From Adineta steineri (lineage: Eukaryota), in NCBI GenBank assembly GCA_905250115.1, contig CAJNOI010000182.1, forward strand, positions 108,962 through 154,209: DNA of 45,248 bases, in the 5' to 3' direction. Below are positions 11,845-45,248 of the stretch, piece by piece. The notes beneath the pieces were generated by a model. The model had not been told where the DNA came from, did no database searches, and saw only the letters and a list, made by a program, of their open reading frames with translations. How positions within the stretch are numbered: the stretch's first letter is position 1; the number at the start of each line of letters is the position of its first letter. The position numbers were made by a program, and so were the translations under genes.

Positions 11845-12286
11845 ACTATTCCTATCTTTTATTCCAGCACTCAATTAAGATTTCTTTTTCTTATTGCATT
11901 ATATGCATGAATGAAAAAAGAAAATGAATTATTATCTAGATTCGATAATATATTTATCATATCATTGTCTTCGAATACAATTGAAAGATAATGATCTGTG
12001 CAAATAAATGTAGATTAGGTTTGTATTGATTGTATTACATATTGAATAGCTAATGGCAAAATATGAAATTAGTTTCTTACTTTTGTTTTTTATTTAATTA
12101 TATTTTCTCCTTTTTTTTATTATTATTTAAGATTTAATATTCTCAATGATGCACAGGGTAATGTCTTCGTCTTGTTACTTGACGGAGTATCGCACTAGTG
12201 AATTCATTGAATACAATATAAATAGAAGAAATATTTTTTTTTTAAGAAAAGTGGTCTTTTCTTTGATGGTATTGTTGTTGGATAAT

Positions 12287-19447: not shown

Positions 19448-20493
19448 CTTATGTCACAAACTACGATCAACAACTAGAATGATACGTGCGTACACAAGTC
19501 GAGTCAACATGACTTTTGTAATAGTTTATTTAGAGCTCCGACTCTATGTACATGTGTCGTCTATATCTTAATGAACCTGTTGTCTTTGTCTATGTCTATT
19601 GTCTTAGCTTACCTGACAGTGATTTGTATCGATGGAGAGTTGTTGATTATAGTTATAATGAATTATTGTTTGACCAGTTATTGCTAATAAATGATCGTTT
19701 GAAGCATGATCAATAAGAAAATGCTAAAAGATAATATATTTAAGATTGCATCATATTTGTTCTGATTACAAGGTTAAGAAAAAGAAGAAAAATGTGAGGT
19801 CAAATGACCAAAAATGTATGTGTGTATTTATGGACAAACATAAAATTTTTTTGCGTGTAAATATCTTCTCATAGTAAGTATATGGAGACATTCTCATACT
19901 TTTTTTTTCCTTTTGCAATAAGATACTCGTTCTTTTTTTTCATTAGGTTTCTTTCAAAATTACTTAAACAGAACAAAAATATAAGTTAATCATGAAGCTG
20001 TCAGGAAACCTTAAAGTAAAATTTTTCGCCTTATTTGTCTAGAAAATTTTTTTAAGAAATTGATGCATGTAAATGAATAGAAAAAGAACGACAGATATAA
20101 ACAACGATATAGTAGTATTAACAGAACTTATTCAATAATAGATATTATCTCAAGACAAACATTTATTCATTGTATCTATCTTTAACATAAGAGAGCGACG
20201 ACCTTTTCCAAAATGAAATTTCCATGAAAAAACTTATTCGTATTGTTATATCTCAAGAATCAATTAACAAAATTGATAGTATTCAAAAGATAAATGAAGA
20301 GAAACAGAAAGCATTCTTTTTAGTTCAATTTACCTCCATTGTATTCGTAAGCTGTTGTGTCTGTACAAGTTCTTCCGGGATCGATTTGTCTTTCAATTTG
20401 CGTTAAAGTGTACATAATTTTACTAGTTCGTTCAATTTAAATTGAGTCAAATATTGATATTGTTATTCTTGTTACTGCTATTCACTGTCTTTG

Positions 20494-20530
20494 TTATTAT
20501 TATTATTATTATTGTTGTTGTTGTTGTTCA
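20494..20530. repeat. (ATT)n(GTT)n compound microsatellite
   Basis: ttattattattattattattgttgttgttgttgtt. Confidence 0.8.
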
Positions 20531-21097
20531 CCACCAACAATCGACTTGTTCGACAAGGTTTCAGATCTAAAGACACAGCAATCGATCGCGCGCAACATAT
20601 AGAGAATGAGACAAAGGGGCTTCCTTTTTGCTGCTCATCATTTGAACAAAATAACAATGGACCTCTCAAAGAGACGAAGGAGGAGGAGGAGAAGGATGGT
20701 GGCAAGTAATAAGAGAGCATATTAAAGAGAAGAGACATAACATGATGTTTTTCAAGAGAGACAAAAAGAGAACTTGATTGAGCGACATATTTCTACCTGT
20801 ATACGCTAATCGATTGCAATTATATATATATACGTATGAAGAGAAAGAAGAGAAGGAAAAAAAGAAAAACAGAGAAAAGATTTTGTAAGAACCTAAAATT
20901 CGAGAATATCAGGACAACCCATAGCATTGATAGAAATAAATAGGAGCAACGAACAAGAATAAGAGAGAAAAAGAAGGGAAAACGACGACTGTGTGTGTGT
21001 GTATGTGCGAACAACGAGTTTTTCCCTTTTTCGCCCCTATGCGTTCATTCATAAAAGATTTGAGTAATTTGCACACAGATTTCTTTTCTTCTTCTAC

Positions 21098-26200: not shown

Positions 26201-27646
26201 TTTTTAATTTGTTTTATATTGAGAAATGCCAGGCATATATATTCTAAATAATCATCTACTAACCTATTAAATTATATCTTGTCGGATCTTCAGTTTATTG
26301 GTCTGTGAAAATATTTTAGATCTTTCTTTTCTTTTTAAAACGCATGTCATACTATCGTTTATCATAGATTTGTTGATGTAACACATGACTTATCAATAAA
26401 TAATCTTTGTAGTTCTTGTTTCGATTGAATAACAGACAATATGGATAATTAGAATAATTCTATGCCTGTTGACCGATAAATGGCAAATATAGGTTAAGAT
26501 TCTACTTTGCTAAAGGATAACTTAGATGCAGATTATAAAAAGTTTAAAAATCAGAATCTATGTTCTCTGTATGTAAATATCTGCTTCAATAAATTTACAT
26601 ATGTATCTTGTATAAATTAAATTAAATACAAAATTTCATATGAAGTAGATGTCACTAGTTACCATACATGGTGACAATGATTTAATTGTGTAATAACAAA
26701 TAAGAAAATCTTACTAATTCAACTTAACATATAAAATCTTTAATTAAGAAACAAATTTTATGAGAAGGCATATTTGACACAAGTCAAACCAACATCATGA
26801 CGTTGATTGGATGTAATGCTCTTTGTCCGTTCTTTCTTGGTGGTTAAAATAAAGTGAAAAAAAGATTGATATGCATTGCATTGCACTGATTGACTCAGAC
26901 AAATATATTCAGCGAGACCAATCTGTAATAGTCATTAGTTGGTTAGCGGTTTACGTAAGGGAACGAAAGAATCTTATATTATATCGGTTTTTTTTAGTAG
27001 TATTTCCCAATTCTTTGCATGATTTCTTTGTCTCTTTATTTCATGTACATATTTTAGTACGAGATCTATGAATGACATACTCGTGAATAACATATGTAAA
27101 TGAAGAGTACCGTTAAAATTCAGAAACATTAATGAGACACTGTACCCTACTTTCTTCTAGCTAGTGTTGAATGAGTAATGAACAAAAAAGAAATTGCAGA
27201 TCGTATCTGAACGTTTTGAAATATCTTACGTTATTTCATAGAAATACCATGACAATTGTAGAGAGAGATAAGTGTCTAGCGTAATAATAGACCCGTAGCG
27301 ATACGCCCATAAGGTTACCTTCATTGGTCCTTGAAAATATTTATTTCAATAAATTTTTTTTTTCGTTTTTCGATGAGGTTAATAGTATTTTATGTCATTC
27401 ATAAAAGAACCGTTAAAGTAATGTTTTCTTTATGAGAAAGGTATGTAGTCAAATTATTATATATATATTTTTTCTAATAAATAGTTCTTTTTTATTATTT
27501 TATATTCAATGACATACGCTACGTTGTCATAAAATCTTATTTGCTAACCGCAGAGAACGATTAAAAGTTAAACATAAGATGTTTTCTTTTTTTATAAAAT
27601 CAGATTAAGTTGACTTCTATTTTTTCCTTTCCTTTGCTTAATGTGT

Positions 27647-27678
27647 GTGTATATGTATGTATGTATGTATGTGTGTCT
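27647..27678. repeat. (TATG/TGTA)n microsatellite
   Basis: gtgtgtgtatatgtatgtatgtatgtatgtgtgt. Confidence 0.75.
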
Positions 27679-27713
27679 GTCTATTCTCTTCCTTCTCGAG
27701 TATGTATTGGGTA

Positions 27714-27752
27714 GCCAATGATAGACAGAGAGATGGTCATGTATATAAGAGA
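27714..27752 (+). promoter_or_regulatory. Candidate core promoter for the SUN-domain gene, with a CCAAT box and a TATA box.
   Basis: gtagCCAATgat is at about 27714 and catgTATATAAgag at about 27742. They lie 230-270 bp upstream of the ATG at 27981 and on the same strand. Confidence 0.35.
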
Positions 27753-27980
27753 GTGATTTTCGTTCTTTTCCGTCGGTTTGTCCTCTAGTGCATCCTAATC
27801 GTAGCGGTCGTTCTTTGTCTATAGCGTTCACCGATGCTATCACATCGCTCTATGTATATATGACCATAGAAGAAGGAAATGGCAGTGAAAGAAGTTCAGC
27901 ATGAGTTAATAATTTTCTTATGTTTTTTTTTTATTTTTAGATTTGTATTTATTTAATTAAGAGAAAAAAATAATAATTCA

Positions 27981-30501
27981 ATGACAGATTCACTAATTGA
28001 TGATGAAATTGTTGATGTTCGATCATCTACGAGTAGACCAGGCGTAGCAAGTGCTACTTCATCAATAACAACAACACATCGTCGACCAATGTTTATCGAA
28101 ACAGAAGTTCGAACTGATACGGTTACGACACGTCGAATGGCATCGGCTGCTGCAAATAAAAGTGTTCACGATGTACTTGAAAATACCAAATCACCTAATC
28201 AGTAAATATTATTTTTTAATCAAAATTTACATATATACATATATAAATTCTTTTTTCTAGTGATCGCCAATCAACAAGTTATACTTATGCTCATAGGTTC
28301 GTATTAAATCGAATACTTTGAAGAATATAACCATGAAAGATTACCACCCTTCTCCTTTGATTCATATCATAATTATAAAAGGCGATTAAAATTCCTAAGA
28401 ATTTCGTCATGTGGATTAGTTCTATTCATTATAGAAATTCAAAATTTAATATCTTTTGTTTTTTAGCAATTCATATGCGCCTGTGTCACGACCTGCCGCA
28501 TACGACATTCCTGCAATGTCACGCCGTAGTTTACATGGTGGTTATCAAAATGGTGTAGAATCAACTGTTGCTTCAGCATTTTCATCACCACAACAATTTC
28601 TATCAACTATTCGAACACAATTAACAAATGGTTATGATGCTGTTCGTGATCGTATAACTAATTTAATTGGTCACCAAGGTGCATCATCACGCGATGCAAC
28701 AAGTGGTGGTGGACGACATACTCGTACATCGTCACAATCATCAGGTTCTAGTCGAGCGAAAGGTTATAATCTTCGTTCACGTCCTGTTCATTCAACACCA
28801 CGGGATACTGATACTGATCAACATAATCAACATCGTAAAACAACTAAACATCGCAAAGATCAACATGGTGAAATTGATGAAGAAGAAGAAGATGATTACG
28901 ATCATGATCACAAACAACCACAACATTTCTTTCATAAAATAATTCATTATGTTAAAAAAGTATTTCATTCACCTATTGATATTTTTGATACAATTTGGGA
29001 TAAATTAAAAAGTTTACCATGGTGGTTACTTATTCCACTTCTTATATTTCTTGGTCTTTATACTTGTAAGTTATATAAATTATTCTTATTCTTATTTTAT
29101 TTCTCTTTTTTTTCAGTACCTTTTTTGGCTTGTAAACCATTTGAACGTTTTCATCATCCAAAAGTAGTTGATGTTTGTCGAGATGTTCATGATTATACAC
29201 AAAATTTAACTAAAAATACATATAAATTTGCTCGTGGTCATACATATGAACGTGGCCTTCGTAATCTAAAACAAGTTTATCGTTCAGCACAAGATGTTAA
29301 AGATTCGGTATTAAATTCTTTAAATGATGTATATTACACAGGAAAACGTGCGCTACGTGGTTCTGTTGGTGGTGTTAAAAATCGTGTTAGTGATGCTGTT
29401 GAAACAACAGCTGAAAATGCAAAAGAATATTATGATGCTGGTATACAAAAAGTTCATAATCTTATTGAAGAACTCAAACAAGAACGAGAAAAAATTCTTG
29501 GAGTGTAAGTTTAATAGATAAAAGAAACATTTATTTTCATTGAAAATTTTTTTTAATTTAGACGACATACATTGAAACCTGATGAAGAAAAAGAATTAGG
29601 AGCGGTAAATAAAATATTAAAAGAAAAGTCTTAGAATGTTTTTATTCTGTTTGTTTTAGATGGTTCGAAAATTAATTGATGAATATGCAGCCGATGAAAC
29701 AGGTCAAGCTGATTATGCACTTGAAGCTAATGGTAAATTTAAAAAAAACTAAATAATAAATTTCATCTAACTTTATTTCTTCTTTTATAAATTAGGCGGA
29801 AAAATTGTTGATACTCGTTGTCAAGAATATACTGATGAACCACGACAAAACGTTGTTAAATTTCTTGGTATCCCTATTGTTCATATGTCGAAACAACCTG
29901 ATATTATTATAAAAGTATGTCTTTTGAATTTTGTACAAATTAGTTGATAAAATAAAAATGTTTTTATAGCATGGACGTATGCCTGGTCAATGTTTTCCAT
30001 TTAAAGGTGATCATGGAAGTGTTATTGTTCGATTAGCTGTACCTGTTGTACCAACAGAATTTGTACTTGAACATTTATCAAAAAGTATTTCAATCGTTGG
30101 ACATATTAATAGTGCACCAAATAATTTTACAGTTTATGTATGTAAAAATTAAAAAACGAAAATATTCTTTTCTAATTTTTCTCTTTTTGTTTTTTCACAG
30201 GCCTTAAAAGATAAACATGATAGAGAAGGTACTGTTCTTGGTCGATATTATTATGATGCAGAAAATGGTCCAGCACTTCAAAGATTTAAACCTCAAGTAT
30301 GATTTTTTTTTCTTGTGAAATAAGAAAACAAAATCTAAATATATATTTTGAATTGTTTTTTTTTATTAGATTGCTAATATGCCCGTTGTTGAATATATTG
30401 AAATTCAAGTAAATTCCAATTGGGGTAATCCGAATTATACATGTTTATACAGATTTCGTGTACATGGTGATATGCAAACTGTTGCTCCAACAGCTGCATA
30501 G
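27981..30501 (+). CDS. SUN-domain (Sad1/UNC-84) inner-nuclear-membrane protein, 9 exons plus one optional in-frame micro-exon.
   Basis: Exons are 27981..28201, [28261..28296 optional, 36 nt, in frame], 28467..29065, 29117..29504, 29562..29604, 29660..29732, 29796..29914, 29970..30137, 30201..30296 and 30370..30501. There is a transmembrane helix LPWWLLIPLLIFLGLYT and a coiled-coil region. The C-terminal SUN domain reads GGKIVDTRCQEYTDEP...CFPFKGDHGSVIVRLAVPVVPTEFVLEHLSKSISIVGHINSAPNNFTVY...YIEIQVNSNWGNPNYTCLYRFRVHG. This matches the SUN1/2 consensus (..SNWGHPEYTCLYRFRVHG). Confidence 0.85.
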
Positions 30502-31399
30502 AGCTTAATGCATTATTTGTTTTGTTTTTCGAGAAAAAACTTTATTCTATTCTATCACAACGAAAGTTCATATTGAATTACCTCGTTGTGATGTTTATGT
30601 ATTATTAATCATTGTTTGTTTGTAAAACATAAAAAAGTACTTAGTTTGTTTGTTGTATGATAATGTATTTAGAAAAATGCATTAACAAAAAAAAAAGCGT
30701 ATGAAATTTAATCTAGACATTCTTTTTTTTCTTATGTCGTATATGTATGTGTCTATTGTATTTGTTCAATCTCGCGGTTTTTTCTTTTCTCACTTTTTTT
30801 TGTCTATAACTTGTGTGTCATTGTCAGTGTGCTTCCTTTTCTTTTCTCGTCGTCTAACATATATTTGAAAATAAAAATATAGACATTTTTGCAACAAATA
30901 AAAAGGAAAATTTTTGATTTGATTTGCTAACTATGAATAATTCTTGCATTCTGATGAAATGTTTTTCAAAATGACGTAAGTAGGGCAAAACAAGAACTTT
31001 TTGTTTATCGATTACAAACTCATTTTGCAATTTTTTCTATATTTCATATTAATTGGTAATTCATACAAAAAAAAATTTCATTTTGAGAATGCAATTTGAT
31101 TCTTTTCCCCCTAATTCATCCGTATATCTCTGTATACTCCTTATCATTATTAGTAAGTAACTTCGATTGTGCAAGAACATAATAGAATGTAGACGAGAGA
31201 GTGAAATATAGATTTTATCGTAAGTCTTGTTTTTTTCTCTTCTGTTCTACTCAACGGGGTAAACTTGCACAATATTTTGAAAATGTTCTTTACCATTTAA
31301 AATGCAATACCATACCCACAGTTTTTTCCGTTTATAAAAGCCCTTCAATTTCTTATTTTTGTCTAGATTATTACTGATATATCTGTAGTAATACACACA

Positions 31400-34300
31400 A
31401 TGAGTAAAACAACTACTGCAAGTGATACTAAAAGTCATTCAAGTCCAGTTTATCGAATTCCACCTTATCATTATATTCATGTATTGGATCAAAATACAAA
31501 TGTTACACGACTTGAAATTGGTCCCAAAACATTCATTAAACAAGATAATGAAACAGTTATTCTTGGACCCGAAAAGATGATCACAGTACCGTATGTAAAA
31601 AAGAAATGCAAATAAATAAATAATTATTTTAAATCTTATTTCAGACCACGTCATTATTGTGTTGTTGAATCACCTGTAATACGCAATGAAGCTGGAGAAG
31701 TAGAATTTGATGAAAATGGTCAAGCTAAACTTATTCATGCTGATTTGGATATTCGTCTTGCACAACCTGATCAAGCACCATTTCCACTTTATCCTGGTGA
31801 AGTTCTTCGTCAAGTATAGGATTGAAAAAATTTTGTTTAAGAAATAATATCAATTATTAAATTCTTTTTTAGCCTGTTACTCCTTTAAAAGTTGTACCTG
31901 CTAATTCAGCATTACGGCTCAAAGCTGTACTTGATTTTGATGATGAAACTGCTAAAGAACAACGTCGTGCTGGTGATGAATGGTTATTTGAAGGTCCAGC
32001 TACTTATATTCCACGTAAAGAAGTTAGTGTTGAGGAACAAATTCGTGCTACAGTTATTGGTTCTAATCAAGCCATTCGACTTTGTGCAAAAAAAGAAATT
32101 ACTGATCGTACTGGTCAACATCGTGTCACTGGTGAAGAATGGTTAGTTAAAAAAACCGGTGCTTATTTACCTCTTGCATATGTAAGTTAAAAAATTACTT
32201 TTATTAATACTAATTAATTATAAACTAAACATTATAGGAAACAGTTGTTTCTGTTGAAAATGCTCATGTATTAACCGATAAAAAAGCTTTACAACTTCGT
32301 GCATTAAAAACATTTACTGATGATTTTGGTAAAGAACGTATGAATGGTGAAGAATGGCTTATAACTTATCTTGATACAGAAACACATATACTTAGTGTTT
32401 ATGAACAATTAGTTGCTGTTGTTGATGTAATAACACTTAATTCTCGTCAATATTGCGTTATAATTGATCCAGTTGAAGATGGAAAACAACAATTAGGAAA
32501 AAAAGTTTGTTATCAAAAATTTTTGTTTTGTATTTTAGAAAAGTTAGAATTTTTTTAGAAACTTATTCTTGGTGAAAAATCATTTTTTCTTCAACCTGGT
32601 GAAAAACTTGAAAATGGTATTCAAGATGTTTTTATATTAGGCGCAGATGAAGGTGTTATACTTAAATGTATAGAAGCATTTGAAGATCAACAAGCTAATG
32701 TAAAACGAAATCCTGGTGATCGATGGATGATTCGCGGTCCAACGTAAGATATGGATTTTTATTTAATTTTGAAAATTAATTTAAAATAAATTTTTAGTGA
32801 ATATATTCCTCCAACACAAGTTGAAGTTGTTACACGTCGAAAAGCACTTCCACTAGATGAAAATGAAGGTATCTATGTTCGTGATATAAAAACGGGTCGT
32901 GTACGGGCTGTTATTGGTGAAACTTATATGTTAACACAAGACGAAGAACTTTGGCAAAAAGAATTACCTAAACAAGTTGAAGATTTATTAACACGTGATG
33001 CGTTAGTTGATCGAAATATTCCAACACGTAATAGAACAACTGATAAAAATCAATCTCAACAAGAAACTACTACTAATTCAAAATCAAATGCAGTTAAACG
33101 TGATAAATCTAAATTAGTTACATATCGTGTTCCACACAATGCATGCGTACAAATTTATGATTATAAAGCTAAAAAAGCACGAATTATTTTTGGTCCTGAA
33201 CTTGTTATGCTTGGTCCAGATGAACAATTTACATTACTTTCATTAAGTGGTTCTGTACCAAAAAAACCTAATCAAATTCAATCACTTTGTTTATTATTGG
33301 GACCCGATTTTTTTACTGATGTTATTGTTATTGAAACAGCTGATCATGCTCGTCTTTCTCTTCAACTTTCATATAATTGGCATTTTCAAATTACTGACAT
33401 CAGTGATGAAAAAGAAGCTGCAAAACTTTTTTCAGTACCAGATTTTATTGGTGATGCAGCTAAAGCTATTGCTTCTCGTATACGTGGTGCTGTTGCTGGA
33501 ACACAATTTGATGATTTTCATAAAAATTCAGCTCAAATCATTCGTGCAGCTGTATTTGGTCTTGATGCTAATCAACAAATTCGACAACATTTTATTTTTC
33601 CACAAAATAATTTAGTTTTAACATCAATTGATATTCAAAGTGTTGAACCTGTTGATCAACGTACACGGGATGCACTTCAAAAAAGTGTTCAATTAGCTAT
33701 TGAAGTAAGAGGAATTATTCTAATACAAATATCTAAAAGTAAAAATAAATAATTTAGATTACAACAAATTCACAAGAAGCAGCTGCTAAACATGAAGCTT
33801 CACGTCGAGAACAAGAAGCTAAAGGTTTATTAGAACGACAACGTATTAGAGATGAAGCTGAAGCTGAAGATGTTCGAAAACAACTTCTTCAATTACAAGC
33901 ATTATCAGCTGCTGTTGAATCAACTGGTCAAGCTAAAGCTGAAGCACAAAGTCGTGCTGAATCACATCGAATTGAAGGTGAAGCAGCTGTTGAACAAGGT
34001 ATGAATAGAAATTATTGATGATAAAATTTTCATATAAAAAAATTATTTTTATTTTAATTAGCTCGTCTTAGAGCAGAAGCTACACGTATTGAAGCTGAAG
34101 CTGAATTATCACGTTTGAAATTAGCACGTGAAGCTGAAATAAAATTTTTACGTGAACAAAATGAATTAGAAATTAATAAAAAAGCTGAAATGTCAAAAAT
34201 TGAAACTGAGAAATTTACATTACAAGTTGAAGCGATTGGAGCATCAACCATTCAAGCAATTGCTACTTCTGGTCCAGATACACAAGTTAAACTTTTACAA

Positions 34301-34462
34301 GCACTTGGTCTTCAATCAATGTTGGTTACTGATGGAAATACACCTATTAATCTAATGGGTTTTGGACAAGGACTTTTAGGTGGTTTAACTGGAAATACAA
34401 ATAAAAAATCTAGAACAGCTACTAATACTTCTAGTAATTATCATATTGAAGAGAATGATTAG
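31400..34462 (+). CDS. MVP: Major vault protein (MVP), 8 exons, 889 aa.
   Basis: Exons are 31400..31590, 31644..31812, 31873..32181, 32238..32504, 32559..32743, 32798..33704, 33758..33998 and 34062..34462. All junctions are GT..AG and in frame. The product is collinear with vertebrate MVP throughout: [209 protein letters not shown].. and the C-terminal coiled-coil cap. Confidence 0.93.
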
Positions 34463-35272
34463 ATACAATAAATTTATATTTCTTGATGAACAAAACCAAA
34501 AAAAATATTGTCTGTTCGTTTATGTTTTAATGTTGATAACTTTGTTCTAAACATTTAGTTTGATTATTTTGTAAAAGTTTACACATGAACAATAAATATG
34601 ACTATTTACCATACAATATAAGTTCTTATGTTATTTGTTTCAATATATAAGCTTAGTTATATCACATTTTACCATCTTGAGGTCATAGACAGAGCAAACC
34701 CACATCCTGGAAGTAAAGAATTTTTGAATCAAATCAAAAAGAAAAGCATATTTTATTTTATAGCCATTTGTTGGATTTCGTTTATGAAATGGAAATTTAC
34801 CATTTAAAAAAACTAGTGCAGTTCTAAGCCATCGTGAAGTTCAATATATTGATGATCATGAATTGAAGCTTGATCAAGTTATTACTGTGTACTAATGCCA
34901 AAAGTACCTTTAAATATTTCTACACGAAGTAAACTTATTGAAAATTACAAAGGAAAAAAAAATAAAGTTATTTTTGATTATTGTTTCTAGCTCATTGACT
35001 TGCAATTGAAGGTAACGACTAACCATTAAAGCGGATCTTACGACAGATTCATTAGATCCTGTAAGATTCTCTAGAACAAAATCAAGTTTTCGATGTATTT
35101 TATTGTGTTTTTATATGAAGTCGCTAACAAAGAAATGACGTAATCTTGATGCATCCAAAAGAAAAGTTCAAATCCACATAAACTTTCTTTGGTACATTTA
35201 AAAAAAATACTCATGAATTATGGATGATAGAACTAGTAGCGTATCCAAGGCCACCGATAAAAACCTCTTGAG

Positions 35273-35330
35273 GGTGTGGGTGTGTGTTGGTGTCTCTTTT
35301 CTTAACTTACACCCATACCCAGCCACACCT
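35273..35330 (-). repeat. GT-rich quasi-palindromic hairpin element, copy 1, inverted relative to copies 2 and 3.
   Basis: gggtgtgggtgtgtgttggtgtctcttttcttaacttacacccatacccagccacacc. Its reverse complement is about 90% identical to 35404..35456. Confidence 0.6.
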
Positions 35331-35403
35331 TCGCCCTCACACGTATCTACACCCTAAATTGATTTTTCGAGACGAACTAAATATATATAGATAAATATAT
35401 TAC

Positions 35404-35456
35404 GGTGTGGGTGTCAGTTAAGAAAAGAGACACCAACTCACACCCACACCCACGTT
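35404..35456 (+). repeat. GT-rich quasi-palindromic hairpin element, copy 2. It marks the start of tandem unit A.
   Basis: ggtgtgggtgtcagttaagaaaagagacaccaactcacacccacaccc. The arms GGTGTGGGTGTC / GACACC..CACCCACACC are mutually complementary. Confidence 0.6.
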
Positions 35457-35640
35457 CCGTTCAACCGAAATACTGCTTCCATGAAATCGTCGGAATACCA
35501 CGGAACCGGCCGTTTCCATGTCGGATTGTTCGACCTGGGCCATCGGTTTGTTCTGTTTTCTTGTTATTATATGAAAGTATATTTGTAAATTTATTCTAGA
35601 TATATATTTTTTCTTGTCCAAAAACGAAATTTGCAGCAAA

Positions 35641-35893
35641 ATGGCTGGATCATTTATTTTAACTGAAGGAAATGAATTAGCAATAGCTTATTTCAATCGA
35701 GCAGAATATGCTATTGCAATTGTTGATGATGCTGGCTTCGTTTACGATAAGAGTATTAAAATATCAGAAAAGAAATGTGCTGATTTGTTTATGTGATGAT
35801 GAATGTGTTATACTTAAAAGTAGAAAGAATGAAAAAATGTTTTTTGTTCTTGGTGATATTACATGTGCATATGTCTGTATTGAAATGGATTAA
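35641..35893 (+). pseudogene. Frameshifted relic of a CDC48/VCP N-terminal-domain gene (unit A).
   Basis: MAGSFILTEGNELAIAYFNRAEYAIAIVDDAGFVYDKSIKISEKKCADLFM* stops prematurely. The continuation, ...CDDECVILKSRKNEKMFFVLGDITCAYV, is homologous to the unit-B sequence LFVDNGEYVIVKSEKCLETICIVRGDNTCL but lies in another frame. Confidence 0.65.
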
Positions 35894-35945
35894 GATGCAC
35901 AAAGTAATTTAGCTGTAAAAAAAGGTGACACTGTATCTATTCAAG

Positions 35946-36003
35946 GGGTGGGTGTGGGTGTAAGTTAAGGAAAGTGACACCAACACACACCCACACCCAA
36001 CCT
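35946..36003 (+). repeat. GT-rich quasi-palindromic hairpin element, copy 3 (start of unit B).
   Basis: ggggtgggtgtgggtgtaagttaaggaaagtgacaccaacacacacccacacccaacc. Confidence 0.6.
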
Positions 36004-36187
36004 CCGTTCAACCGAAAACTGCTTCCATGAAATCGCCGGAATACCACGGAACCAGCTGTTTCCGTGCCGGATTGTTCGACCTGGACCACCGGTTTGTTTT
36101 GTTTTCTTGTTATTATATGAAAGTATATTTATAAATTTATTCTAGATATATACTTTTTCTTATCCAAAAACGAAATTTGGCAGCAAA

Positions 36188-36574
36188 ATGGCTGGATCAT
36201 TTATTTTCACTGAAGAAAATGAATTAGCAGCAGCATATCTCAATCGTGCCCAACATGCCAATGCAATTGTAGACGATGCTGGTTTTTATTATGACAAAAG
36301 CATCAAGTTATCAGACAAGAAACGTGCTGATTTGTTTGTAGATAATGGTGAATATGTTATAGTCAAGAGTGAAAAATGTCTTGAAACAATTTGTATTGTT
36401 CGTGGCGATAACACATGTCTCAATGATCGTATTCGACTAAATACCGTTGTAACAGACAATTTACGTGTATATTCTCGTGATTTTGTTACAATTCATAAGT
36501 GTGGAAATGTTCCAGATGGTAGCCATATATATGTTTTACCGATTGGTTATTCTGAACACGGATCAAGTAGTTGA
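36188..36574 (+). CDS. Stand-alone CDC48/VCP N-domain (double-psi beta-barrel, Nn subdomain) ORF, 128 aa. It may be a remnant first exon of a decayed VCP paralog.
   Basis: MAGSFIFTEENELAAAYLNRAQHANAIVDDAGFYYDKSIKLSDKKRADLFVDNGEYVIVKSEKCLETICIVRGDNTCLNDRIRLNTVVTDNLRVYSRDFVTIHKCGNVPDGSHIYVLPIGYSEH.. aligns with p97 residues about 20-115: [96 protein letters not shown]. It terminates before the Nc subdomain and has no ATPase domain. Confidence 0.6.
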   Translation: MAGSFIFTEENELAAAYLNRAQHANAIVDDAGFYYDKSIKLSDKKRADLFVDNGEYVIVKSEKCLETICIVRGDNTCLNDRIRLNTVVTDNLRVYSRDFVTIHKCGNVPDGSHIYVLPIGYSEHGSSS

Positions 36575-36690
36575 TAAAGGATGGGATTCTTTTCAAGTAC
36601 TCTCAAAAACCGAATTGGTGATATTTTTTATTAACTTACATTATTATTGTTTATATATCTATGTTTAGAAAAATTCAGCTATTGTAATTA

Positions 36691-36826
36691 CCCAGGTCGA
36701 TGAATACGCGATTCGTATACGGTCGTAATACTGAGACAGGTAATACGCTAAAGTACGACGGAATACGGCACGACATTCGTATACTGTTCGTATACGGTCG
36801 TTTACGACAGACAATGTTCGACCTGG
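36691..36826. mobile_element. 136-bp MITE with perfect palindromic termini CCCAGGTCGA...TCGACCTGGG and subterminal repeats.
   Basis: The first 11 nt, cccaggtcgat, equal the reverse complement of the last 11 nt, (a)tcgacctggg/ttcgacctggg. The interior has reiterated cgtatacggtcgt and gtaatacg motifs. There is no ORF. Confidence 0.6.
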
Positions 36827-36835
36827 GACTATTAT

Positions 36836-37001
36836 AGCTACAACAAATCGACAACGTTTAATTGATTTGCCGCTTTATCTTCGTGCTCAATTTATATACG
36901 AAGTTCTTATTAACACACCTGATGCTGATGAGCGTTTTGATATTCTTGGTAAATACACAGAAAATATGCAATTGGATGATGATGATCGAATACTGCCACC
37001 G
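36836..37001 (+). pseudogene. Isolated fragment of a VCP/CDC48 D1 ATPase domain (the region just after the arginine fingers), sitting between inverted MITE copies.
   Basis: The in-frame translation ..LRAQFIYEVLINTPDADERFDILGKYTENMQLDDDD.. aligns with p97 [39 protein letters not shown]. It is only about 55 codons long and is bounded by a stop codon and by MITE sequence. Confidence 0.55.
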
Positions 37002-37005
37002 TAAC

Positions 37006-37127
37006 CGATCGTTTATCTGCGTGAACGAGAGTATACGATACGGAGAAATACGACCGTAATACTAAGACACGTAATACGTGAAAATACGACCGTATACGAA
37101 TTGAGTATTCATCGACCGGGGTATGTT
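37006..37127. mobile_element. Partial second copy of the 36691..36826 MITE, in inverted orientation.
   Basis: The reverse complement of 37090..37127, ccccggtcgatgaatactcaattcgtatacggtcgta, matches 36691..36727, cccaggtcgatgaatacgcgattcgtatacggtcgta, at 33 of 37 positions. It shares the same subterminal motifs. Confidence 0.55.
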
Positions 37128-37454
37128 CGGCAGCTACTTTATATCGAATTCGACAACAAATGGATGTTATCGACGCCGCAAAAAAAATCATTCATTCCAA
37201 TGTCTTCGGTTCATCAGCTGTAAAAAAAGAAGATTTTCTATTCGTCTTAAACAACAGAAAATAAAAATTTATCTGTATTTGTTGTTTTTTTTTTGAATTA
37301 AATCAACAAAATAAAATATATATTATATTGATCTAAAACTTTTCTAATTATTCTTTGGTACGTGCATCAATATACAAATTTTATTTGAAAAATAATTTAT
37401 CATTTATAAAAACATTTGTTCTGAACTCTGTATACTCAATAAAAAAATATGAAA

Positions 37455-37655
37455 GAAAAAAAACGAAATCAATGAAAACTTCCTTCTTAAGAATGGAGTT
37501 TGCACTGTACATTTCTCACATAAAGATCGTCGTGTTGTTATTCTAATTGAACAGATGAAACTAGTAACACCAAAATAAAATAATAAAGTTGTTTGATTAT
37601 CAATCATCAATTTTTTTCAAACGAATTGTTGTTTTATTTAAAAGATTTATGTCAT
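37455..37655 (+). repeat. Dispersed ~200-bp repeat 'R', copy 1. Copy 2 is at 45052..45248.
   Basis: aaacgaaatcaatgaaa..ggagtttgcactgtacatttc..gataaagatcgtc(g/a)tgttgttatt(c/t)taattgaacagatg(a/g)aactagt(a/g)acaccaaaa..ttttttcaaacgaat..ttttatttaaaagatt is about 88% identical between copies. It carries a short conserved ORF ..GVCTVHF(S/P)(H/D)KDR(R/H)VVILIEQM(K/E)LVTPK. Confidence 0.7.
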
Positions 37656-38239
37656 TGGTAGAGATAGTAAAAGCGCATCGTCTGATCTACTTTCAGTTGA
37701 TAATCAAGATGGTGTTGTTCAACTGCATGAAAACATTTCGGATAATCATATACTATGAATTAGTCTTAAGTATTTATGCAAATGTATTTGACCTCACTAC
37801 TGTGTGTATGTGTATTATGTCTTTCTCTTTGTCTTTTTACTGTTGTTTATAAATAATTCAAAAGATAAAAGAAAGATTTGATTAAAATATTAAATAAATA
37901 GTTTTTGTTGTACAATCAACTGAATGACGAGAAATTTACATACCTTCTTTTTTGATCTTTGGTTGAGATAAGTTAGTCATGTACGAGATTCTATTTATGA
38001 AACAATAAATTTCAATTCAATTTTGATTCGCGTCAAGCTCCTTTTTTTATTTTTCATTGTACATATACTCTGCAACATCAGATAATGTTGTATTGGATGA
38101 TTTTTTTTATTATAAAATGAGAATGAGAAATGATCCTTAATAGTTGATATTTCTTTATATTTAAGAAATATTGTTACGTTATAAATACAACATTTATCAT
38201 GTTATTCAGTTTATTGAATAAATCAAAACGTAAATAAAT

Positions 38240-40522
38240 TTACTTATACAACGAAGGAAAATAACGACATAAATCTTCCGAATGCACCACTGGTTCTATC
38301 GAAGTTATTTTTGTCACCTTAGCACAATTGCGTCGTGTTTCTTCCCTAGTAAAGTCTTTTGTTACAGTTTTTAAATCATCAACATAGACTTCAAATTCAG
38401 TCAGACAAGGTACGAATGTCTTTGTTTCATTTAGAAATTGATCAATATAATCTCTATGTGCAGATACGACACCAAGTACAGTCAGATGAGGATATTCAAT
38501 AATCGACTGTAATAGACAATTTTCAGATGACAATGTCATAAGACCATTTAAATTTTGTGATTTTTCATTCCGAATAAAAAGATGCTTGAGTAACGGAAAC
38601 GATCGGGCAATTCGCATGAAGAATTCATGTTCGAATGGAATAATATCTTGTATAACTAAATAGGTAACATAACTAAATACAATATTTGGAAAGTTATTGC
38701 CAATATCTCGGAGATAATCAAATCCAAAAGGAAGTGAGAAAACGGAGCATGCAGCTCTCACACCATAAATACAATTAACTTCACTAATAACATAATTGAC
38801 CATACTACTGACATGTTGTTGTCCAATATTTCTTAATTTTATTCGAATATCTTCACTTGATAACTTGCAGGATAAAACAGCTGGATCAACATAAGTACAA
38901 ATATAGAAAGTGAATGAACGAAGTTGTGGCATATAATCCAAAATATCATGTTGAACATAAGTACCACCAATAACTCTATTTCGACCTTTTATAGAAATAT
39001 TTAGAGTTAACTTTTCCAGATCTGACATACGACGAAGAAGTAATACAACTTTATCATATTGATATAATGGGCAGGACGATTTTAATGAGAAACATTTTAG
39101 ATTCAATAATTTATCCTACAAAAAGAAAGAAATGTTTTTTTGATAATCTATAAGATTAAGTCATTGGCATCATTATTTTACACATGATATATCATCTATA
39201 TTCTATCTGTGAATGACCACAAATGACAAATCTATTAAATTGATTTTCTCATTTTATAGCACAACAAACGAATGTTAAAAGAACAATCAAAGCTTCAGAC
39301 CGCAAACTTTCGATCATATCTGAATTATTAGAAAAATTGTTATTATAGAAAAACTTTCGTTCCATCCAATGCTGATGATCATTCACATATGATAATATTT
39401 GATCAATCATGAAACAGAGTAGTCCAGTTTTTAATGTGAACTATATTCGATAAAATATTATATAGTTATAATTTCTGGCTACAAATTTCATTGGTTCGTT
39501 TATTAAATTGTAATTTCTACTACCTACAAACTAAATGTTGATGATTTTGATATATTCCTCAACACGAATATTTTTTTCTCCTTATCAAAATAAAACTTAA
39601 ACTTTCAATCTTATCTCAATTTTTTGAGATCAATCGTTAACTGCATTGAAATAGCCGTAATCTTCGTGGCATAAATGAAATTATTTGTAACAACTTACCA
39701 TATTGCGAACACTCTCTGAGTGTGTGTCTATATAATAGACATTAACACACAATGTTGCCAATTTTTTAAGTCGACCATCAAGTAAATAAAGACAATCACC
39801 AAAAGTTTCGACATTGATATATAAATGAGTAAGAGTCGAAGATGAAAAAGTAGTCGATGGCAAATAACAAAGTGATAAAGGTGGACATGACCTAACAGAT
39901 GGTTCTATGATACTTAATTTTTTTAAGTTTTTGAAAAAGATCAAGATGTAAGCATATACATTATCAGTATATATCTTCGGGAAATATTCCTTGTTGTATT
40001 TATCATCATTGATAAGAATAAGGTTTGTAATTTGTTCTTGAAAAATAGATCGAAGTGATGATTTATCTAAAGGAGAAAAGTGATGTATTGAAACATATTA
40101 TTCTTCTTTCATTTGTAACTCTTTTATTATTTCTCAACTAATCAAAGTCATATTAAATGCTTACTTGTAAAATAGTTTGAAGCGATTTCTTCTTGGAAAT
40201 GAAAAATTGTAAGTTTAGTTAAATTTGGATAGTCAGTAGCAAGAAGAATACGTTCCATAAACATTGGATCAAAAGCAAAACATTTCACATTGTGATGAAT
40301 TCTTGGTAATATATCACTGCAGAATCGATCGATGATAGAAATATTATCAATGGAAACAAACTTGAGAATGTTGCTGAAAATATTTTCTTGTGCAAGAATG
40401 TTAAGTCGTCCATCATTCATATCCAATAAAGAATATAGTATATCGATATTGTTCAAGTACTTCAAAATAATAAGCAATATTTCATTAGGTAAATCCAGAA
40501 GATGAGCATTCGATCGGTTCAT
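38240..40522 (-). CDS. F-box protein (N-terminal F-box, long C-terminal region of unrecognised type), 3 exons, about 530 aa.
   Basis: Exons are 40165..40522, 39699..40066 and 38240..39115. The N-terminus MNRSNAHLLDLPNEILLIILKYLNNIDILYSLLDMN is a textbook F-box (LP.EIL..I..YL). The downstream exons are collinear in frame. Intron 2, at about 583 bp, is unusually long for this locus, so a missed exon or a two-gene split cannot be excluded. Confidence 0.65.
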
Positions 40523-40914
40523 ATTTTATTATGAGTATGATGTTTTTGACTAAGATAAAGCTTTATATATACATACATATTTGTTCATTATTTTCATCTC
40601 ATACTTTGACCTCAAACAGAATGAAAATTTAGCAATGTGATTGATCTATTTCAAGTTAAATCATCTTTTTAGACGCTTTATTCGTTAATTCAGTCTGTTT
40701 GGACGTTTTGTGTCAACGTTAGATTGAAGGATGACACATTGAGAAGAAGAAAGGATATATTTCTCCTATAACAGAGTTAGCTGAACTTCATTCATTTAGT
40801 ATTTTTTACATTCGAGATTTTTACATTTTAAAATCAAATATGAAGTGTTTGATGATGATTCGATCGTGCACTGTTAATCTATATACGTGTCGGATAAAAA
40901 AACTTTTTTTCCAT

Positions 40915-41008
40915 TCTGTGACCAATCAGATAAAAGTGACTGACCTGGATCCTGTCTATTATATAATAGACAGGGTCAGTTTGGGTACTGTTATCTGATT
41001 GGTCACAG
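40915..41008. repeat. 94-bp near-perfect palindrome (foldback / MITE-like) carrying two inverted CCAAT boxes. A truncated third arm lies at 41045..41110.
   Basis: ctgtgaccaatcagataaaagtgactgacctgg...ctgtctattatataatagacag...ttatctgattggtcacag. The centre of symmetry is at about 40962. It lies between the F-box gene start (40522, minus strand) and the plus-strand ORF at 41281. Confidence 0.6.
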
Positions 41009-41280
41009 ACTGGAAAAATTATATATATATATTTTTTTTTTTAATTCTATGACCAATCAAAATCAAAGAAAAGTGATCGGACTGAACCGTATCTATTATT
41101 ATATAGATGATATCTGATAATACCATGTATTCTAGCAAAACAACTCGCCGATAGACCAGATGCAAATAATCATTAGGAATTACGCGATTATGCTTCATCA
41201 CGTTGTGCGCAAATGATCAGGTAAATATAGAGTTTAAACAAATAAAATTTCATTTGTAAACATGTTTTTTCTTCTTAATT

Positions 41281-42487
41281 AGAATGTTTCCAGCTAGTAT
41301 TCATCGTTTACAAAATCGTATTGTACGAAATTTTCGTCGAACATTTCAAAGTGAACATATCACTTATTACTCACTATGGAGCACTTGCTGATTTATGTGA
41401 AATGGATCAAGAAATAAATAGATAAAGTATAAAGTCTAATAAATTCTGTACATTTTCATTTATTTAGACAATTGAACAATACGTATTTTCTATAACAAGA
41501 ACATTTGGTGATCGAATTGTAAAATCATGTGGAAATCTATCACTACCACCGATTGATAAAATAATGTTGATCGAATTAATGGTGTTACATCGGTAAATAA
41601 TATCTATTTATTATATAATTAATTTATATAATTTTTATATCTTTTGTAAAAATATAATCCAACAGCTTACCGTACATTATGTTCAACACCTAATGATCTT
41701 GAACATTTTAAAGAAGACGTTGCTATTTTTTATGAACAACGTTTATATACACAAGTTATCCAACTTCAGCAACAATCAAGACCCACAACTTGACCTACGC
41801 AAGTGTAGATATTTGTTATTATGTTATAACAAAATAAATTTAAATATATATTTAGAATATATGTTGGTGGTCATCTTTGTAATTTAATTAATCCAATAAG
41901 TGGAACAAAGTAAATTCAATAATATTTAATTTATTTAAATAATAAATTTTTTATTTCAATTAGTTATTGAATTGTAACTGATACTGATCTTCAATGTTTT
42001 TTTGAAGGTACAGAAGTTGGTTAGTAAAATTTGATTATATACTTAATTATATGTCTCGACTAAAATTACGAATAAAATTAAGAATATAAACGACTTAAAT
42101 TGAAATAAAATAAATTGAAATGAATCAATAGCTCTACTCAATGGTCAACCAACTCCAGAAGTTGTTCAAACGGCTTCAAATGATTTACCAACAATTTATC
42201 CATTATCAGTTACAGTAACAGCGACAAGTACACTTTATATAATAACTTTTCCACCTGAAATGGATAATGTACTATTACTTACTTGTATTTCAACATCAAC
42301 AAATCCTCCTAATGTTACTGAAATAGTTCAAGGTGTTGCATCAGGTTCTCAAATAGCATTTGAATTTGATGGTCAATTAACAGAATATATTGGTTTTACA
42401 AATAATAGTATAAATTCATCAAAACTTCAATCAACATTTAATGAAGTATTTAGTATTCAATGTCCAATATCTCTTAATAACATTTAA
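41281..42487 (+). CDS. Putative multi-exon gene of unknown function. The exon chain is not resolved.
   Basis: Candidate exons are 41281..41390 (MFPASIHRLQNRIVRNFRRTFQSEHIT..), 41470..41590 (TIEQYVFSITRTFGDRIVKSCGNLSLPPIDKIMLIELMVLH, bounded by ttatttag / gtaaat), about 41660..41800, and 42135..42487 (LLNGQPTPEVVQTASNDLPTIYPLSVTVTATSTLYIITFPPEMDNVLLLTCISTS...FSIQCPISLNNI*, preceded by acceptor ..aatcaatag). I could not connect the frames unambiguously. Confidence 0.25.
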
Positions 42488-42654
42488 GCAACTACATCAA
42501 TCGTTTATCTTGAAAATTTGAACCAGATTGTTATTATGATGAAACAAATTTGATTTATATAATTTGATTTACAGTTTTTTTAATCTTGCCATTTATGACA
42601 ATAGATTTGTAAATTTTTTTTAGATAAAAATTTTAAATTTTCTTAAATACTCAT

Positions 42655-44216
42655 ATGAAAATGGCTGCAAGTAATAATGATGGTAAATATGAAACTGTTC
42701 CTGTAGCTGATAAACATGCCGGTGATGAATTACAAGTTGAAGATCAGAACGACGAGGACCATAATACTGTTGTTCTACCAGCTCAATTATTGCGAGATAT
42801 ATTCGATTCATTTAAGAAACTTTTCATCATCATTCATCATCAAGTACATGATAAATCTCTTGTATGCGTTGGTAAAACGCAGAACGTTAGATTAGCTCTT
42901 CCTGGTCCAAAAATGAAAATGAGTCGTGTAATAAGGAAAAATTTGAATATATTATTAAATGATGTTGTGACATTTGACGCATGCCAAAATATTATAGAAG
43001 GTGAACGTCTTGAAGTCGCACCCATTTATGATACCATTAATGGATTAACAGGAAGTCTATTAAATATTTTTTTAATACCATATTTTCGTATTAAAAATCC
43101 TGGTCGACCGGTGAATCAAGGTGAATTTTTTATTGTTCGTGCAGCTATGCGTGCTGTAGAATTTCAAGTTATTAAAACTGTACCAGAACCGTATTGTATT
43201 GTTGGACCCAAAACAAAAATAGTTTGTAAAGATGTTCCAGTTAAACGTGAAGAAGTGAAATCATCGTTGAATGAAGTTGGTTATGATAGTATTGGTGCTG
43301 TAAAAAAACAACTGGCATCAATTAAAGAAATGGCTGAATTTACATTACGACATCAACCATTAATTAAACTAAGTGGTGCTACACTGGCACAACGTATTCT
43401 TCTCTATGGACCACCTGGCACAGGTATAACAAAAAGAAATCTTATTTTATTAAGAAAAAAAATGTTTTATATTTTAGGGAAAACATTGGTCGCACGTGCC
43501 GTGGCAAACGAAACAGGTGCATCATTCTTTTTAATTAGTGGACAAGAAATGATGTCTAAATTAGCTGGTGATGAAGAAGTAACATTAACTAAAGTTTTTG
43601 AAGAAGCTGTAAAAGTAAATACATAATAGTTTTTTTTAAATAATTAAAATTAAGAAATTATTCGGTATTATTTTATTTATAGAAATCTTCAGCCATCATT
43701 TTCATTGATGAGCTCGATGCTATCGTACGAAAACGTCAAAATACACATGGTGAAGTTGAATGTTGCATAGTATCACAATTATTAACAATAATGGAGAATC
43801 TTAAACAACATTCACATGTTCTTTTTATGGCTGCCACAAATCAACCAAATGACATTGATTCAAAACGATTTGGTTTTAATCTCGAAGTTGATTTGAACAT
43901 AGCCGATGATGATGTTAATGGTCGTTTAGAGATCCTTCTTATACATACAAAAAATTGGAATCTACATCATGATGTTAATTTAGAACAGATTGCTAAAGAA
44001 ACACCCGGTTATGTTGGTGGAAACTTAGTCTCATTATGTTCAGAAGCTTATTTACAACAACTTCGAGAAAAAAAGGATATTTTTGTTCCAGGTCAAGATA
44101 CATATCCTGTTGAAAAACTCGATTTATTATGTATTACTGAAGAAAATTTTCGAGTTGCATTGGAGCTATCAAAAAAAACAGTTCTACGCAAATCTGTTTC
44201 AAAGAAAAAAGACTGA
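42655..44216 (+). CDS. VCP/p97/CDC48-like AAA+ ATPase paralog, truncated to N domain + D1 domain (no D2), 3 exons, 477 aa.
   Basis: Exons are 42655..43423, 43478..43608 and 43683..44216. Splicing of intron 1 (54 nt, gtataac..ttttag) restores the Walker A P-loop GPPGTG|[14 protein letters not shown]. The product aligns with p97 from the N domain through D1: ..[241 protein letters not shown]... It stops where the D1-D2 linker would begin. Confidence 0.85.
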
Positions 44217-44403
44217 TCCTAAGTTGTCAGTAAGCATTTAAGAACTGTATTCTTTTTATATTCTGTTTTCATCATTTGCTGTTGTTCACTTTTCTTCTTT
44301 TTTTATTTCCTTTAACATCAAATAAAATGTAAAAAAAAAAGACAGAATGATGAAAATAACATGTCTTCATATATTTTTTTTTTTCGATTGGGCGAGCTTG
44401 AGG

Positions 44404-44460
44404 TAGTGGGTGTGGATGGAATAGAATACACACACGAACACTCTCGTCCACGCCCACCCT
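44404..44460. repeat. GT-rich quasi-palindromic hairpin element, copy 4, located 3' of the VCP-like gene.
   Basis: gtagtgggtgtggatggaatagaatacacacacgaacactctcgtccacgcccaccc. It has the same GTGGGTGTGG...CCACRCCCACCC architecture as the 35273/35404/35946 copies. Confidence 0.5.
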
Positions 44461-45051
44461 TCATTATCAGTATGAAATTCGTCATCAACATTAACATCAA
44501 ATATTAGTTCATTACTTGGTTCTTCTGGTGAACCAACAAATGTTGCTTCCAATTAATCATCTAATGCTTATTCACCATATTCAAATCATCCAACACAATC
44601 ACCAGTTATGCAAATCAATTATCAATGTAAAAAACAAACAAAATAAAAATTATAAGAAATATTTCTTTAAAAATCCTTTTTGTTTTTATATAGCATAAAG
44701 TTCTTATATTCTAACACCAGTTGTATCAAGTGATAGTTTTTCTTCATCATCGAATAATAATACTTCATCTGACCAATCTTCATTTGAAAATAATGTTTAA
44801 TTACCAACAATAAACATTACACCTGTGACACCAAGTGCACAATATGCACCAGTGCCAACTTCACTTCGTTAGTTTTTTCTTCATCTTTTCTTGATAAATA
44901 TAAGAATTAAATGAATAGACTTTGACTCAATAACAAATAATGATTGACATACAGAAGATTTGTATGCTAGAATCAAAGTTTCAAATAAAGATGAAACAAT
45001 TTATGTTGAAATGATTGGTGTTATTCAAAGTATATCTGTAGATTTTCTATT

Positions 45052-45248
45052 AAAGAAGAAAACGAAATCAATGAAAGTTTCTTTTCTTAAGCAGGGAGTT
45101 TGCACTGTACATTTCCCAGATAAAGATCGTCATGTTGTTATTTTAATTGAACAGATGGAACTAGTGACACCAAAACAAAACGATAAAGTTATTTGATAAT
45201 CATTTATCTATTTTTTTTCAAACGAATCGATTTTTTATTTAAAAGATT
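45052..45248 (+). repeat. Dispersed ~200-bp repeat 'R', copy 2. It runs to the end of the window.
   Basis: See 37455..37655. The conserved short ORF here reads ..KQGVCTVHFPDKDRHVVILIEQMELVTPKQNDKVI*. Confidence 0.7.

Follow-up and report, generated by a model that had tools for sequence, protein, structure and literature searches.

Does an open reading frame (ORF) of 128 codons, coding for the N-terminal tail and Nn barrel of VCP/p97, represent a small protein in its own right, or is it the front end of a dead gene? The question is raised by positions 35,273 to 37,655 of a 45,248-nt stretch from the bdelloid rotifer Adineta steineri (assembly GCA_905250115.1, contig CAJNOI010000182.1, positions 108,962 to 154,209), referred to throughout as the window. 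A sequence-only reading had seen in this interval a decayed duplicate of an intact VCP-like gene that lies some kilobases downstream. Our analysis indicates that 35641-37264 on the plus strand is probably an unprocessed VCP/p97 pseudogene, and that it would be the wreck of a lineage-specific, fast-evolving paralogue comprising the N and D1 domains only.

A collinear VCP copy in a broken frame

The VCP pieces lie on one strand and in the order of canonical A. steineri VCP, as established by tblastn and by alignment. A broken N-domain copy (N1) is followed by an open one (N2), a probable frameshifted stub of Nc, residues 337-394, and residues 410-461 with a stop codon (Table 1). Residues 127-336 are missing or unrecognizable and the Walker A/B region is absent. 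The frame is broken by a frameshift and by two insertions, E3 and E4, and with Walker A, Walker B, sensor 1 and the arginine fingers not in one frame, the copy does not have the makings of a functional AAA+ ATPase.

The homology of N2 is secure. It matches residues 7-124 of p97 with a single one-residue gap (E 1.3e-18, phmmer against PDB) and residues 8-126 of canonical A. steineri VCP (P0015) at 40% identity (E 4e-19, tblastn), in agreement with the earlier recognition of a 128-residue CDC48 Nn-barrel ORF at 36188. It is also nearer to canonical VCP than is the N domain of the intact neighbour (49 as against 35 identities over 122 positions), as had been claimed. A complete cofactor-binding N domain was not found, for N2 stops at residue ~126 and has no match to CDC48_2 in Pfam. 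Among 5.8 billion proteins searched, its only relatives are two from A. steineri, P0001 (CAF1482132.1/CAF1638859.1) and P0002. P0001 is 91% identical to N2; six of the 10 differences fall in the first 15 codons and four in codons 16-114, and at four of them (positions 3, 5, 6 and 8) N2 agrees with N1.

N1 is a second, more damaged start. Its segment 35744-35944 matches VCP residues 38-104 at 31% identity with an internal stop (tblastn), and the tandem copies as a whole (35404-35866 and 35951-36418) are 85% identical over 470 nt, N1 showing a 2-nt gap relative to N2; the frameshifted tandem copy placed earlier at 35641 is therefore real. Identity between N1 and N2 is ~94% upstream of the ATG and declines steadily to ~55% in the direction of the 3' end. 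Once the first ~100 nt, the presumably converted 5' part, are set aside, just 17 of 67 residues are identical, so that the two are as distant from each other as either is from canonical VCP. This gradient, together with the positions at which N2 equals N1 and not P0001, suggests that the 5' ends were probably converted between the copies. The second relative, the 175-residue gene model P0002 (L001 10001-10934, corresponding to window 35641-36574), is built by splicing N1's first 33 codons to the ORF of N2 together with its 5' flank. It looks like an artefact of ab initio prediction and, as it joins two pseudogene starts, it is not to be read as a protein family.

Directly after N2, the frame from 36565 reads on to DGILFKYSQKPNW, a stop codon and YFLLTY, and resembles canonical GNLFEVYLKPYFLEAY (residues 128-144). 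Its local alignment scores 29, whereas shuffled sequences average 21.1 (sd 3.9) and do as well in 13 of 300 cases. The stub gains credibility from being placed exactly where it is expected, after residue 126, and is probably the start of Nc, frameshifted at that point. If it is real, the stop of N2 is an accident of decay and not an evolved terminus.

The D1 domain is better preserved. Positions 36831-36983 match residues 344-394 at 43% identity (E 2e-5, tblastn), confirming the D1 fragment reported at 36836; the sensor-1 Asn is retained (ATTNR), while the arginine-finger motif is replaced (LYLRAQF against LRRFGRF). Further on, 37121-37252 matches residues 415-458 at 45% identity (E 1.4e-6, tblastn). 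This lid tail, the piece for residues 337-343, the probable Nc stub and an SPT5 KOW7 exon described below were all absent from the earlier account.

Between these pieces lie E3 and E4, whose anatomy is that of TA-targeted insertions of miniature inverted-repeat transposable elements (MITEs), mobility being suggested by the anatomy of the junctions. When E3 and one TA are deleted in silico, the joined sequence reads KNSAIVIIIATTNR and onwards in an ungapped blastx alignment to VCP residues 337-394. When E4 and one TA are deleted, the lid alignment extends leftwards over the junction to residue 410 (residues 410-458); the first base of E4 completes a TAA stop. E3 has perfect 10-bp terminal inverted repeats and folds well (z -4.1), and the ends of the two elements (36689-36727 and 37085-37123) are inverted copies of each other, 92% identical over 39 nt. 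The TA flanks, inverted ends and clean empty sites uphold the earlier proposal of MITE insertion; likewise the lesions, with the homology restored on removal of each element, bear out the picture of a decayed VCP-family copy that small elements bounded by terminal inverted repeats break up.

Two other constructions of this region were considered and rejected. In one, to which spacing and frame were suited, 36669-36830 would be a Walker-B exon following canonical intron 2, and E3 would be coding sequence that has degenerated. Inside E3, however, alignment to VCP coding sequence is no better than for shuffles; removal of the element gives the better, ungapped match to residues 337-350, and what had been taken for an intron aligns with the beginning of Nc. 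In the other, E3 and E4 would be spliced out: one GT-AG pair would connect N2 in frame with the sensor-1 piece, yet the junction after it misses the homologous frame.

As a history, these pieces would fit a small tandem cluster in A. steineri, made up of two N-domain starts (N1 and N2), one D1 remnant and the intact 479-residue neighbour. Its members would descend from the canonical VCP gene by DNA-level duplication, with a dead SPT5 3' fragment standing 3' of each copy. The decayed copy would have been an open reading frame during most of its history, and we infer that inactivation came later, through a frameshift after residue ~126, loss of residues ~145-336 (the rest of Nc, Walker A and Walker B), loss of residues 395-409 with a frameshift, and two TA-targeted insertions from one MITE-like family. 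The 5' ends of N1 and N2 would have been homogenized, probably by gene conversion, and the 128-codon ORF would be the 5' part of the dead gene, still open.

Table 1. Features of the decayed VCP-like locus and of the comparators used in the window
Feature	Position	Strand	Description
E0	35272..35332	-	GT-rich hairpin unit, found in reverse complement at 35404 and 35946; fold z -3.3
E1	35404..35545	+	GT-rich hairpin opening tandem unit 1, with a ~90-nt tail that ends in GTTCGACCTGGG; fold z -3.8
5' flank of N1	35546..35640	+	Homologous to the neighbour's 5' flank (35559-35610 against 42584-42634, 81% over 52 nt)
N1	35641..35944	+	Broken VCP N-domain copy (residues ~1-104); frameshift and stop; 3' end cut by E2
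E2	35946..36090	+	Tandem copy of E1; fold z -3.8
5' flank of N2	36091..36187	+	~94-95% identical to the N1 flank; 36097-36156 against 42576-42634, 75%
N2	36188..36574	+	Open 128-codon ORF; VCP N-terminal tail and Nn double-psi barrel (residues 8-126)
Nc remnant	36583..36640	+	Probable start of Nc, VCP residues ~128-144 (GNLFEVYLKPYFLEAY); frame differs from that of the ORF; in-frame stop
D1 piece KNSAIVI	36669..36690	+	VCP residues 337-343; ends in the TA target site of E3
E3	36691..36829		139-nt MITE-like insertion; TA at 36689-90 and 36830-31; terminal inverted repeats CCCAGGTCGA/TCGACCTGGG
D1 piece, sensor-1 to arginine-finger region	36831..37001	+	Residues 344-394, then a short frameshifted stretch (residues ~410-413, other frame)
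E4	37004..37121		118-nt MITE-like insertion of the E3 family, opposite orientation; TA at 37002-03 and 37122-23
D1 lid tail and stop codon	37121..37264	+	Residues 415-461 (from 410 with E4 removed); ends just after D1, like the neighbour gene
Repeat R	37448..37647	+	Second KOW6 exon of SPT5 and adjoining intron sequence; 1-nt indel, premature TAA
SPT5 KOW7 exon and stop codon	37648..37758	+	Continues R; KOW7_SPT5 37.8 bits in the composite peptide
Intact VCP-like N-D1 gene (P0003)	42655..44216	+	479 residues; introns 43424-43477 and 43615-43682
Comparator SPT5 3' pseudogene fragment	44500..45248	+	CTR-like Ser/Pro/Thr-rich stretch and the two KOW6 exons, R included; truncated at the contig end

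SPT5 fragments and the relation to the intact neighbour

Each VCP-like copy is followed by the sequence termed repeat R. The repeat reported at 37455 does recur, 37448-37647 matching 45048-45248 at 87%, and, far from being an unknown element, it proves to be a dead 3' fragment of SPT5. A 78-residue ORF over the 45-kb copy matches Pfam KOW6_SPT5 and human SPT5 residues 1007-1041 (PDB 5ohq). A composite peptide, built from the 45-kb KOW6 exons minus a 54-nt GT-AG intron and the exon at 37648-37755, exceeds the cut-offs for both KOW6_SPT5 (41.5 bits against 27.0) and KOW7_SPT5 (37.8 against 27.1). The 45-kb fragment lies directly 3' of the VCP-like gene, and in two places it has a stop where the related peptide P0245 has Trp. 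Since both R copies carry stops or indels, they are SPT5 gene fragments and not SPT5 genes.

The intact neighbour retains the canonical introns 1 and 2 of VCP, after residue 250 (phase 1) and after residue 296 (phase 0), which argues that the family arose by DNA-level duplication; in the decayed copy, where the same evidence would bear on an origin as a processed pseudogene, the stretch containing these introns is deleted. Walker A and B are kept over 479 open codons, and one arginine finger is lost (RFGFN against RFGRFD). The protein is ~52% identical to all animal VCPs, and its next-best matches after A. steineri are canonical VCPs. Its dN/dS against canonical VCP by the Nei-Gojobori method (NG86) is 0.53 overall and 0.76 in the N domain, or ~1 on its own branch, figures that are rough, as are all dN/dS values given here, because dS is near saturation in this AT-rich genome. 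The neighbour could be a single-ring derivative of p97 that evolves fast, or else a gene that is being lost.

The order of parts at the two loci is the main attraction of the idea that both are products of one segmental duplication of a VCP N-D1 gene with its SPT5 fragment, after which one product decayed. We hold this to be possible but doubtful. On both sides, the same strand carries in the same order a 5' flank, N, a D1 that ends just after the lid, and an SPT5 KOW6 fragment; the offsets between matching parts are 6.5-7.6 kb, and the 5' flanks and the lid show weak nucleotide similarity. The shared order that had been described thus stands for N, D1 and R. It does not stand for the hairpins, which lie upstream of the N copies and not between D1 and R. 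Nor does nucleotide resemblance extend far: outside R, direct comparison of the loci returned only a stretch of ~50-60 nt 5' of the ATG, at 75-81%, and one of 47 nt within the lid, at 74%.

What speaks against a single duplication is the pattern of divergence. Across 223 aligned positions, the decayed copy agrees with canonical VCP at 40% but with the neighbour at just 21%. Where the two copies both depart from a conserved canonical residue, at 40 positions, they have the same derived residue three times, which is about chance. Third-codon identity is ~0.6 both in comparisons with canonical VCP and between the D1 pieces and the neighbour, against a random value of 0.35, and the poorly aligned N domain is near that random value relative to the neighbour. 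On these identities, derived residues and third-codon values, the decayed copy, the neighbour and canonical VCP form a star. Meanwhile the two R copies are 86.4% identical, and with D1 third codons at ~0.6 to neighbour and canonical VCP alike, R must be much younger than the VCP-like parts or have been homogenized. Furthermore, each R copy is nearer (90%) to the environmental contig L009 than to the other, and L009 carries no VCP-like DNA upstream. Hence collinear homologous blocks are present, whereas comparable divergence and shared derived changes are not. The differing ages of R and the VCP-like parts do not fit a single block duplication followed by uniform decay, and at least two steps are called for. 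The earlier description of the locus as a segmental duplicate of the 42.6-45.2 kb locus is accordingly not sustained, given the three shared residues in 40, the 21% as against 40% identity, and R at 86%.

The epithet 'ancient' fares no better. Protein searches returned no orthologue of either copy outside A. steineri, and fast evolution is an equally good reading of the divergence. In a related bdelloid contig with the same Sad1/UNC-MVP synteny, no VCP-like DNA was found downstream and the whole cluster is absent. An MVP-based search for the contig that carries P0001 brought up other bdelloid lineages only. With matches confined to A. steineri and a cluster-free syntenic contig, the cluster looks lineage-specific, and the high divergence of its copies may reflect speed rather than age.

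The SPT5 fragment has a wider context of its own. Window 37448-38914, comprising R, the KOW7 exon and an F-box gene, is 82-87% identical in nucleotides to environmental Adineta-like metagenome contigs (L009-L013), and the DNA upstream of R in these contigs contains nothing VCP-like and shows no similarity to the window. The gene beside the SPT5 fragment, on the minus strand, is F-box/leucine-rich-repeat-like, and its F-box frame carries stops in several of these contigs. In the window it occupies 38240-40522 as an F-box-like gene or remnant spread over several ORFs of 288, 87 and 124 residues, with the F-box motif in the 124-residue N-terminal ORF only, at sub-threshold Pfam scores.

Past constraint and present status of the 128-codon frame

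The decayed copy appears to have spent most of its history as a gene. In neutral simulations started from a canonical N-domain sequence, the frame remained open in 0.35% of runs at 40% amino acid identity (mean 5.5 stops), and second codon positions are the best conserved in N2 (0.73, against 0.55 and 0.56). As an open frame is so rare under neutrality and second positions are conserved, the copy mostly diverged as coding sequence. Its NG86 dN/dS against canonical VCP is 0.63, which, because canonical VCP barely changes, implies ~1 on the copy's own branch. This points to evolution under a very relaxed or diversifying regime.

Past constraint is a separate matter from present constraint. Between P0001 and N2, four of 99 domain codons are changed, where ~5 changes would be expected under neutrality and ~0.5 under strong constraint; this expectation was set at the haplotype divergence of 2.2-2.4% seen at two other loci and assumes that P0001 is an allele of ordinary divergence.

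Several observations weigh against regarding the locus as a mere pseudogene. The ORF is open in at least two haplotypes or isolates (here and in P0001) and is called by gene predictors. The last 42 codons compared with P0001 are identical. The Nc stub is just marginally significant, having been one of six tests. Lastly, no other copies of E3/E4 or of the hairpins were recovered from the rest of the window, from ~150 kb of other, partly redundant, Adineta-like DNA or from two metagenome scans.

It is tempting to speculate, then, that the ORF is a living gene, a stand-alone Nn barrel that was kept after the rest of the gene died and that acts as a decoy or competitor for the N-domain partners of p97. 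Neutral decay to such divergence would almost never leave 128 open codons, the few changes relative to P0001 spare the 3' end, and N2 has a 5' flank of its own, to which the flank of the intact neighbour is homologous. Nevertheless, we consider such a function unlikely. The open frame can be explained by a past within a longer gene, and the D1 pieces are likewise stop-free within themselves. In p97, UBX, VIM and VBM partners bind the cleft between Nn and Nc, and SHP motifs bind Nc, so that an Nn-only protein would be without those sites. Moreover, the stop of N2 probably stems from a frameshift, the score on CDC48_N falls below the Pfam cut-off, and the changes relative to P0001 match the neutral expectation. 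For want of an Nc, and with a stop and a substitution count of this kind, the suggested stand-alone N-domain protein that binds cofactors is not supported. Most likely, the 128-codon ORF is a remnant and no new mini-protein.

Inserted elements, hairpins and comparison with known systems

In the window, the family to which E3 and E4 belong consists of two copies and two related tails, all inside this locus, and the end motif GTTCGACCTGGG occurs only at 35528, 36074, 36691 (minus strand) and 36816. E4 folds no better than shuffled sequence (z -0.25). Such confinement of the motif to one 2-kb locus, the failure to find copies beyond it in the remaining window, the other loci and the metagenome scans, and the poor fold of E4 might suggest that E3 and E4 are no transposons and arose by local inverted duplication or rearrangement while the locus decayed. 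We judge this to be quite improbable: each element sits between TA dinucleotides, removal of either restores continuous in-frame VCP homology, and the two have common inverted ends, with a perfect terminal repeat in E3. The DNA sampled outside the window is, besides, a tiny part of a genome of ~160-170 Mb (PMC7943196). Insertion of TA-targeted elements thus remains our preferred explanation of E3 and E4.

A further reading, in our estimation very improbable, is that A. steineri maintains a private, rapidly diversifying family of single-ring (N-D1) VCPs, whose intact 479-residue member keeps Walker A/B and an open frame despite a branch dN/dS of ~1, and in which the Nn-only ORF would be retained as a decoy, either for p97 N-domain partners or for some agent directed at p97.

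The GT-rich hairpins reported for the 35.3-37.7 kb region are real. Three are significant as DNA folds (35272-35332, 35404-35451 and 35946-36002; z -3.3 to -3.8), and E1 is 90% identical to 35951-36084. The motif TGTGGGTGT occurs six times in the window against 0.04 expected, five of the six inside these hairpins, whose arms carry TGTGGG and its complement. As TGTGGG is the bdelloid telomere hexamer (PMC7943196), the hairpins could represent telomere-like repeats at an interstitial site, folded back on themselves. By contrast, the 'hairpin' placed at 44404 in the neighbour locus is no counterpart, since its fold is weak (z -1.7) and it has no BLAST similarity to the other three. Two opposed hairpin units make up an inverted repeat, I1 (35272-35451), with 48-nt arms at 94% identity and an 84-nt AT-rich spacer; it could give a hairpin RNA if transcribed, and has a sub-threshold Rfam match to the miRNA precursor MIR4208 (38 bits against a cut-off of 140). 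A tRNA- or SINE (short interspersed element)-like origin of a GTTCGA motif was also considered and discarded: ARAGORN found nothing, and Rfam gave just sub-threshold miRNA-hairpin matches from inverted repeats.

The DNA of the window is nuclear, with ~29% G+C and introns of ~50-60 nt, and a scaffold of a second assembly (CAJNOM010000038.1, L001, GCA_905250015.1) is 99.995% identical to window 25641-45248. The end of the window at 45248 coincides with a 100-N scaffold gap (L001 19608-19707). Past the gap, the scaffold (L014 12694-21562) repeats window 11959-20815 at 97.65%, about haplotype divergence; probably the other haplotype was scaffolded in tandem here, which would make the repeat an artefact of assembly and not a real 33-kb duplication. 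A search of other assemblies for DNA downstream of the 45-kb locus returned only the same scaffold. At the canonical VCP locus, four A. steineri assemblies (L002-L005) resolve into two haplotypes that differ by ~2.2% over 8 kb and, in some intergenic stretches, by 6-8%; all four encode the same 805-residue VCP protein.

Taken together, our findings describe a real but ordinary lineage-specific unprocessed pseudogene. Its value lies chiefly in annotation, and it offers a small, clean case of birth-and-death evolution of the normally ultra-conserved VCP in a bdelloid rotifer, with TA-targeted insertions whose empty sites can be reconstructed and with probable gene conversion between tandem copies. 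For p97 biology it would matter only should the intact neighbour or the mini-ORF turn out to have a function.

The comparison with known systems follows the same lines. E3 and E4 resemble Tc1/mariner-derived (Stowaway-like) MITEs in being short (118-139 nt), non-coding, TA-flanked and bounded by inverted ends; they differ in matching no described element and in the degenerate terminal repeats of E4. R and its continuation encode the KOW6 and KOW7 domains of SPT5 (SUPT5H; PF23288 and PF23287), although just the last ~100-250 residues of that protein are present at either site. N2 is homologous to the Nn double-psi barrel of VCP/p97/Cdc48 (Pfam CDC48_N, PF02359; PDB 3tiw and 1e32), with a score (21.9 bits, E 2e-4) short of the gathering threshold of 35.1 and no Nc, D1 or D2 in frame; canonical VCPs are very alike over this stretch, and N2 is just 40% identical to them. 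As with other unprocessed pseudogenes, a decayed genomic copy stands beside a related intact gene that retains the parental introns, and has been inactivated by frameshifts, deletions, stops and insertions. The departure from that pattern is twofold: the parent-like member of the cluster has itself been truncated to N and D1 and is evolving rapidly, and the three lineages form a star and not a recent pair.

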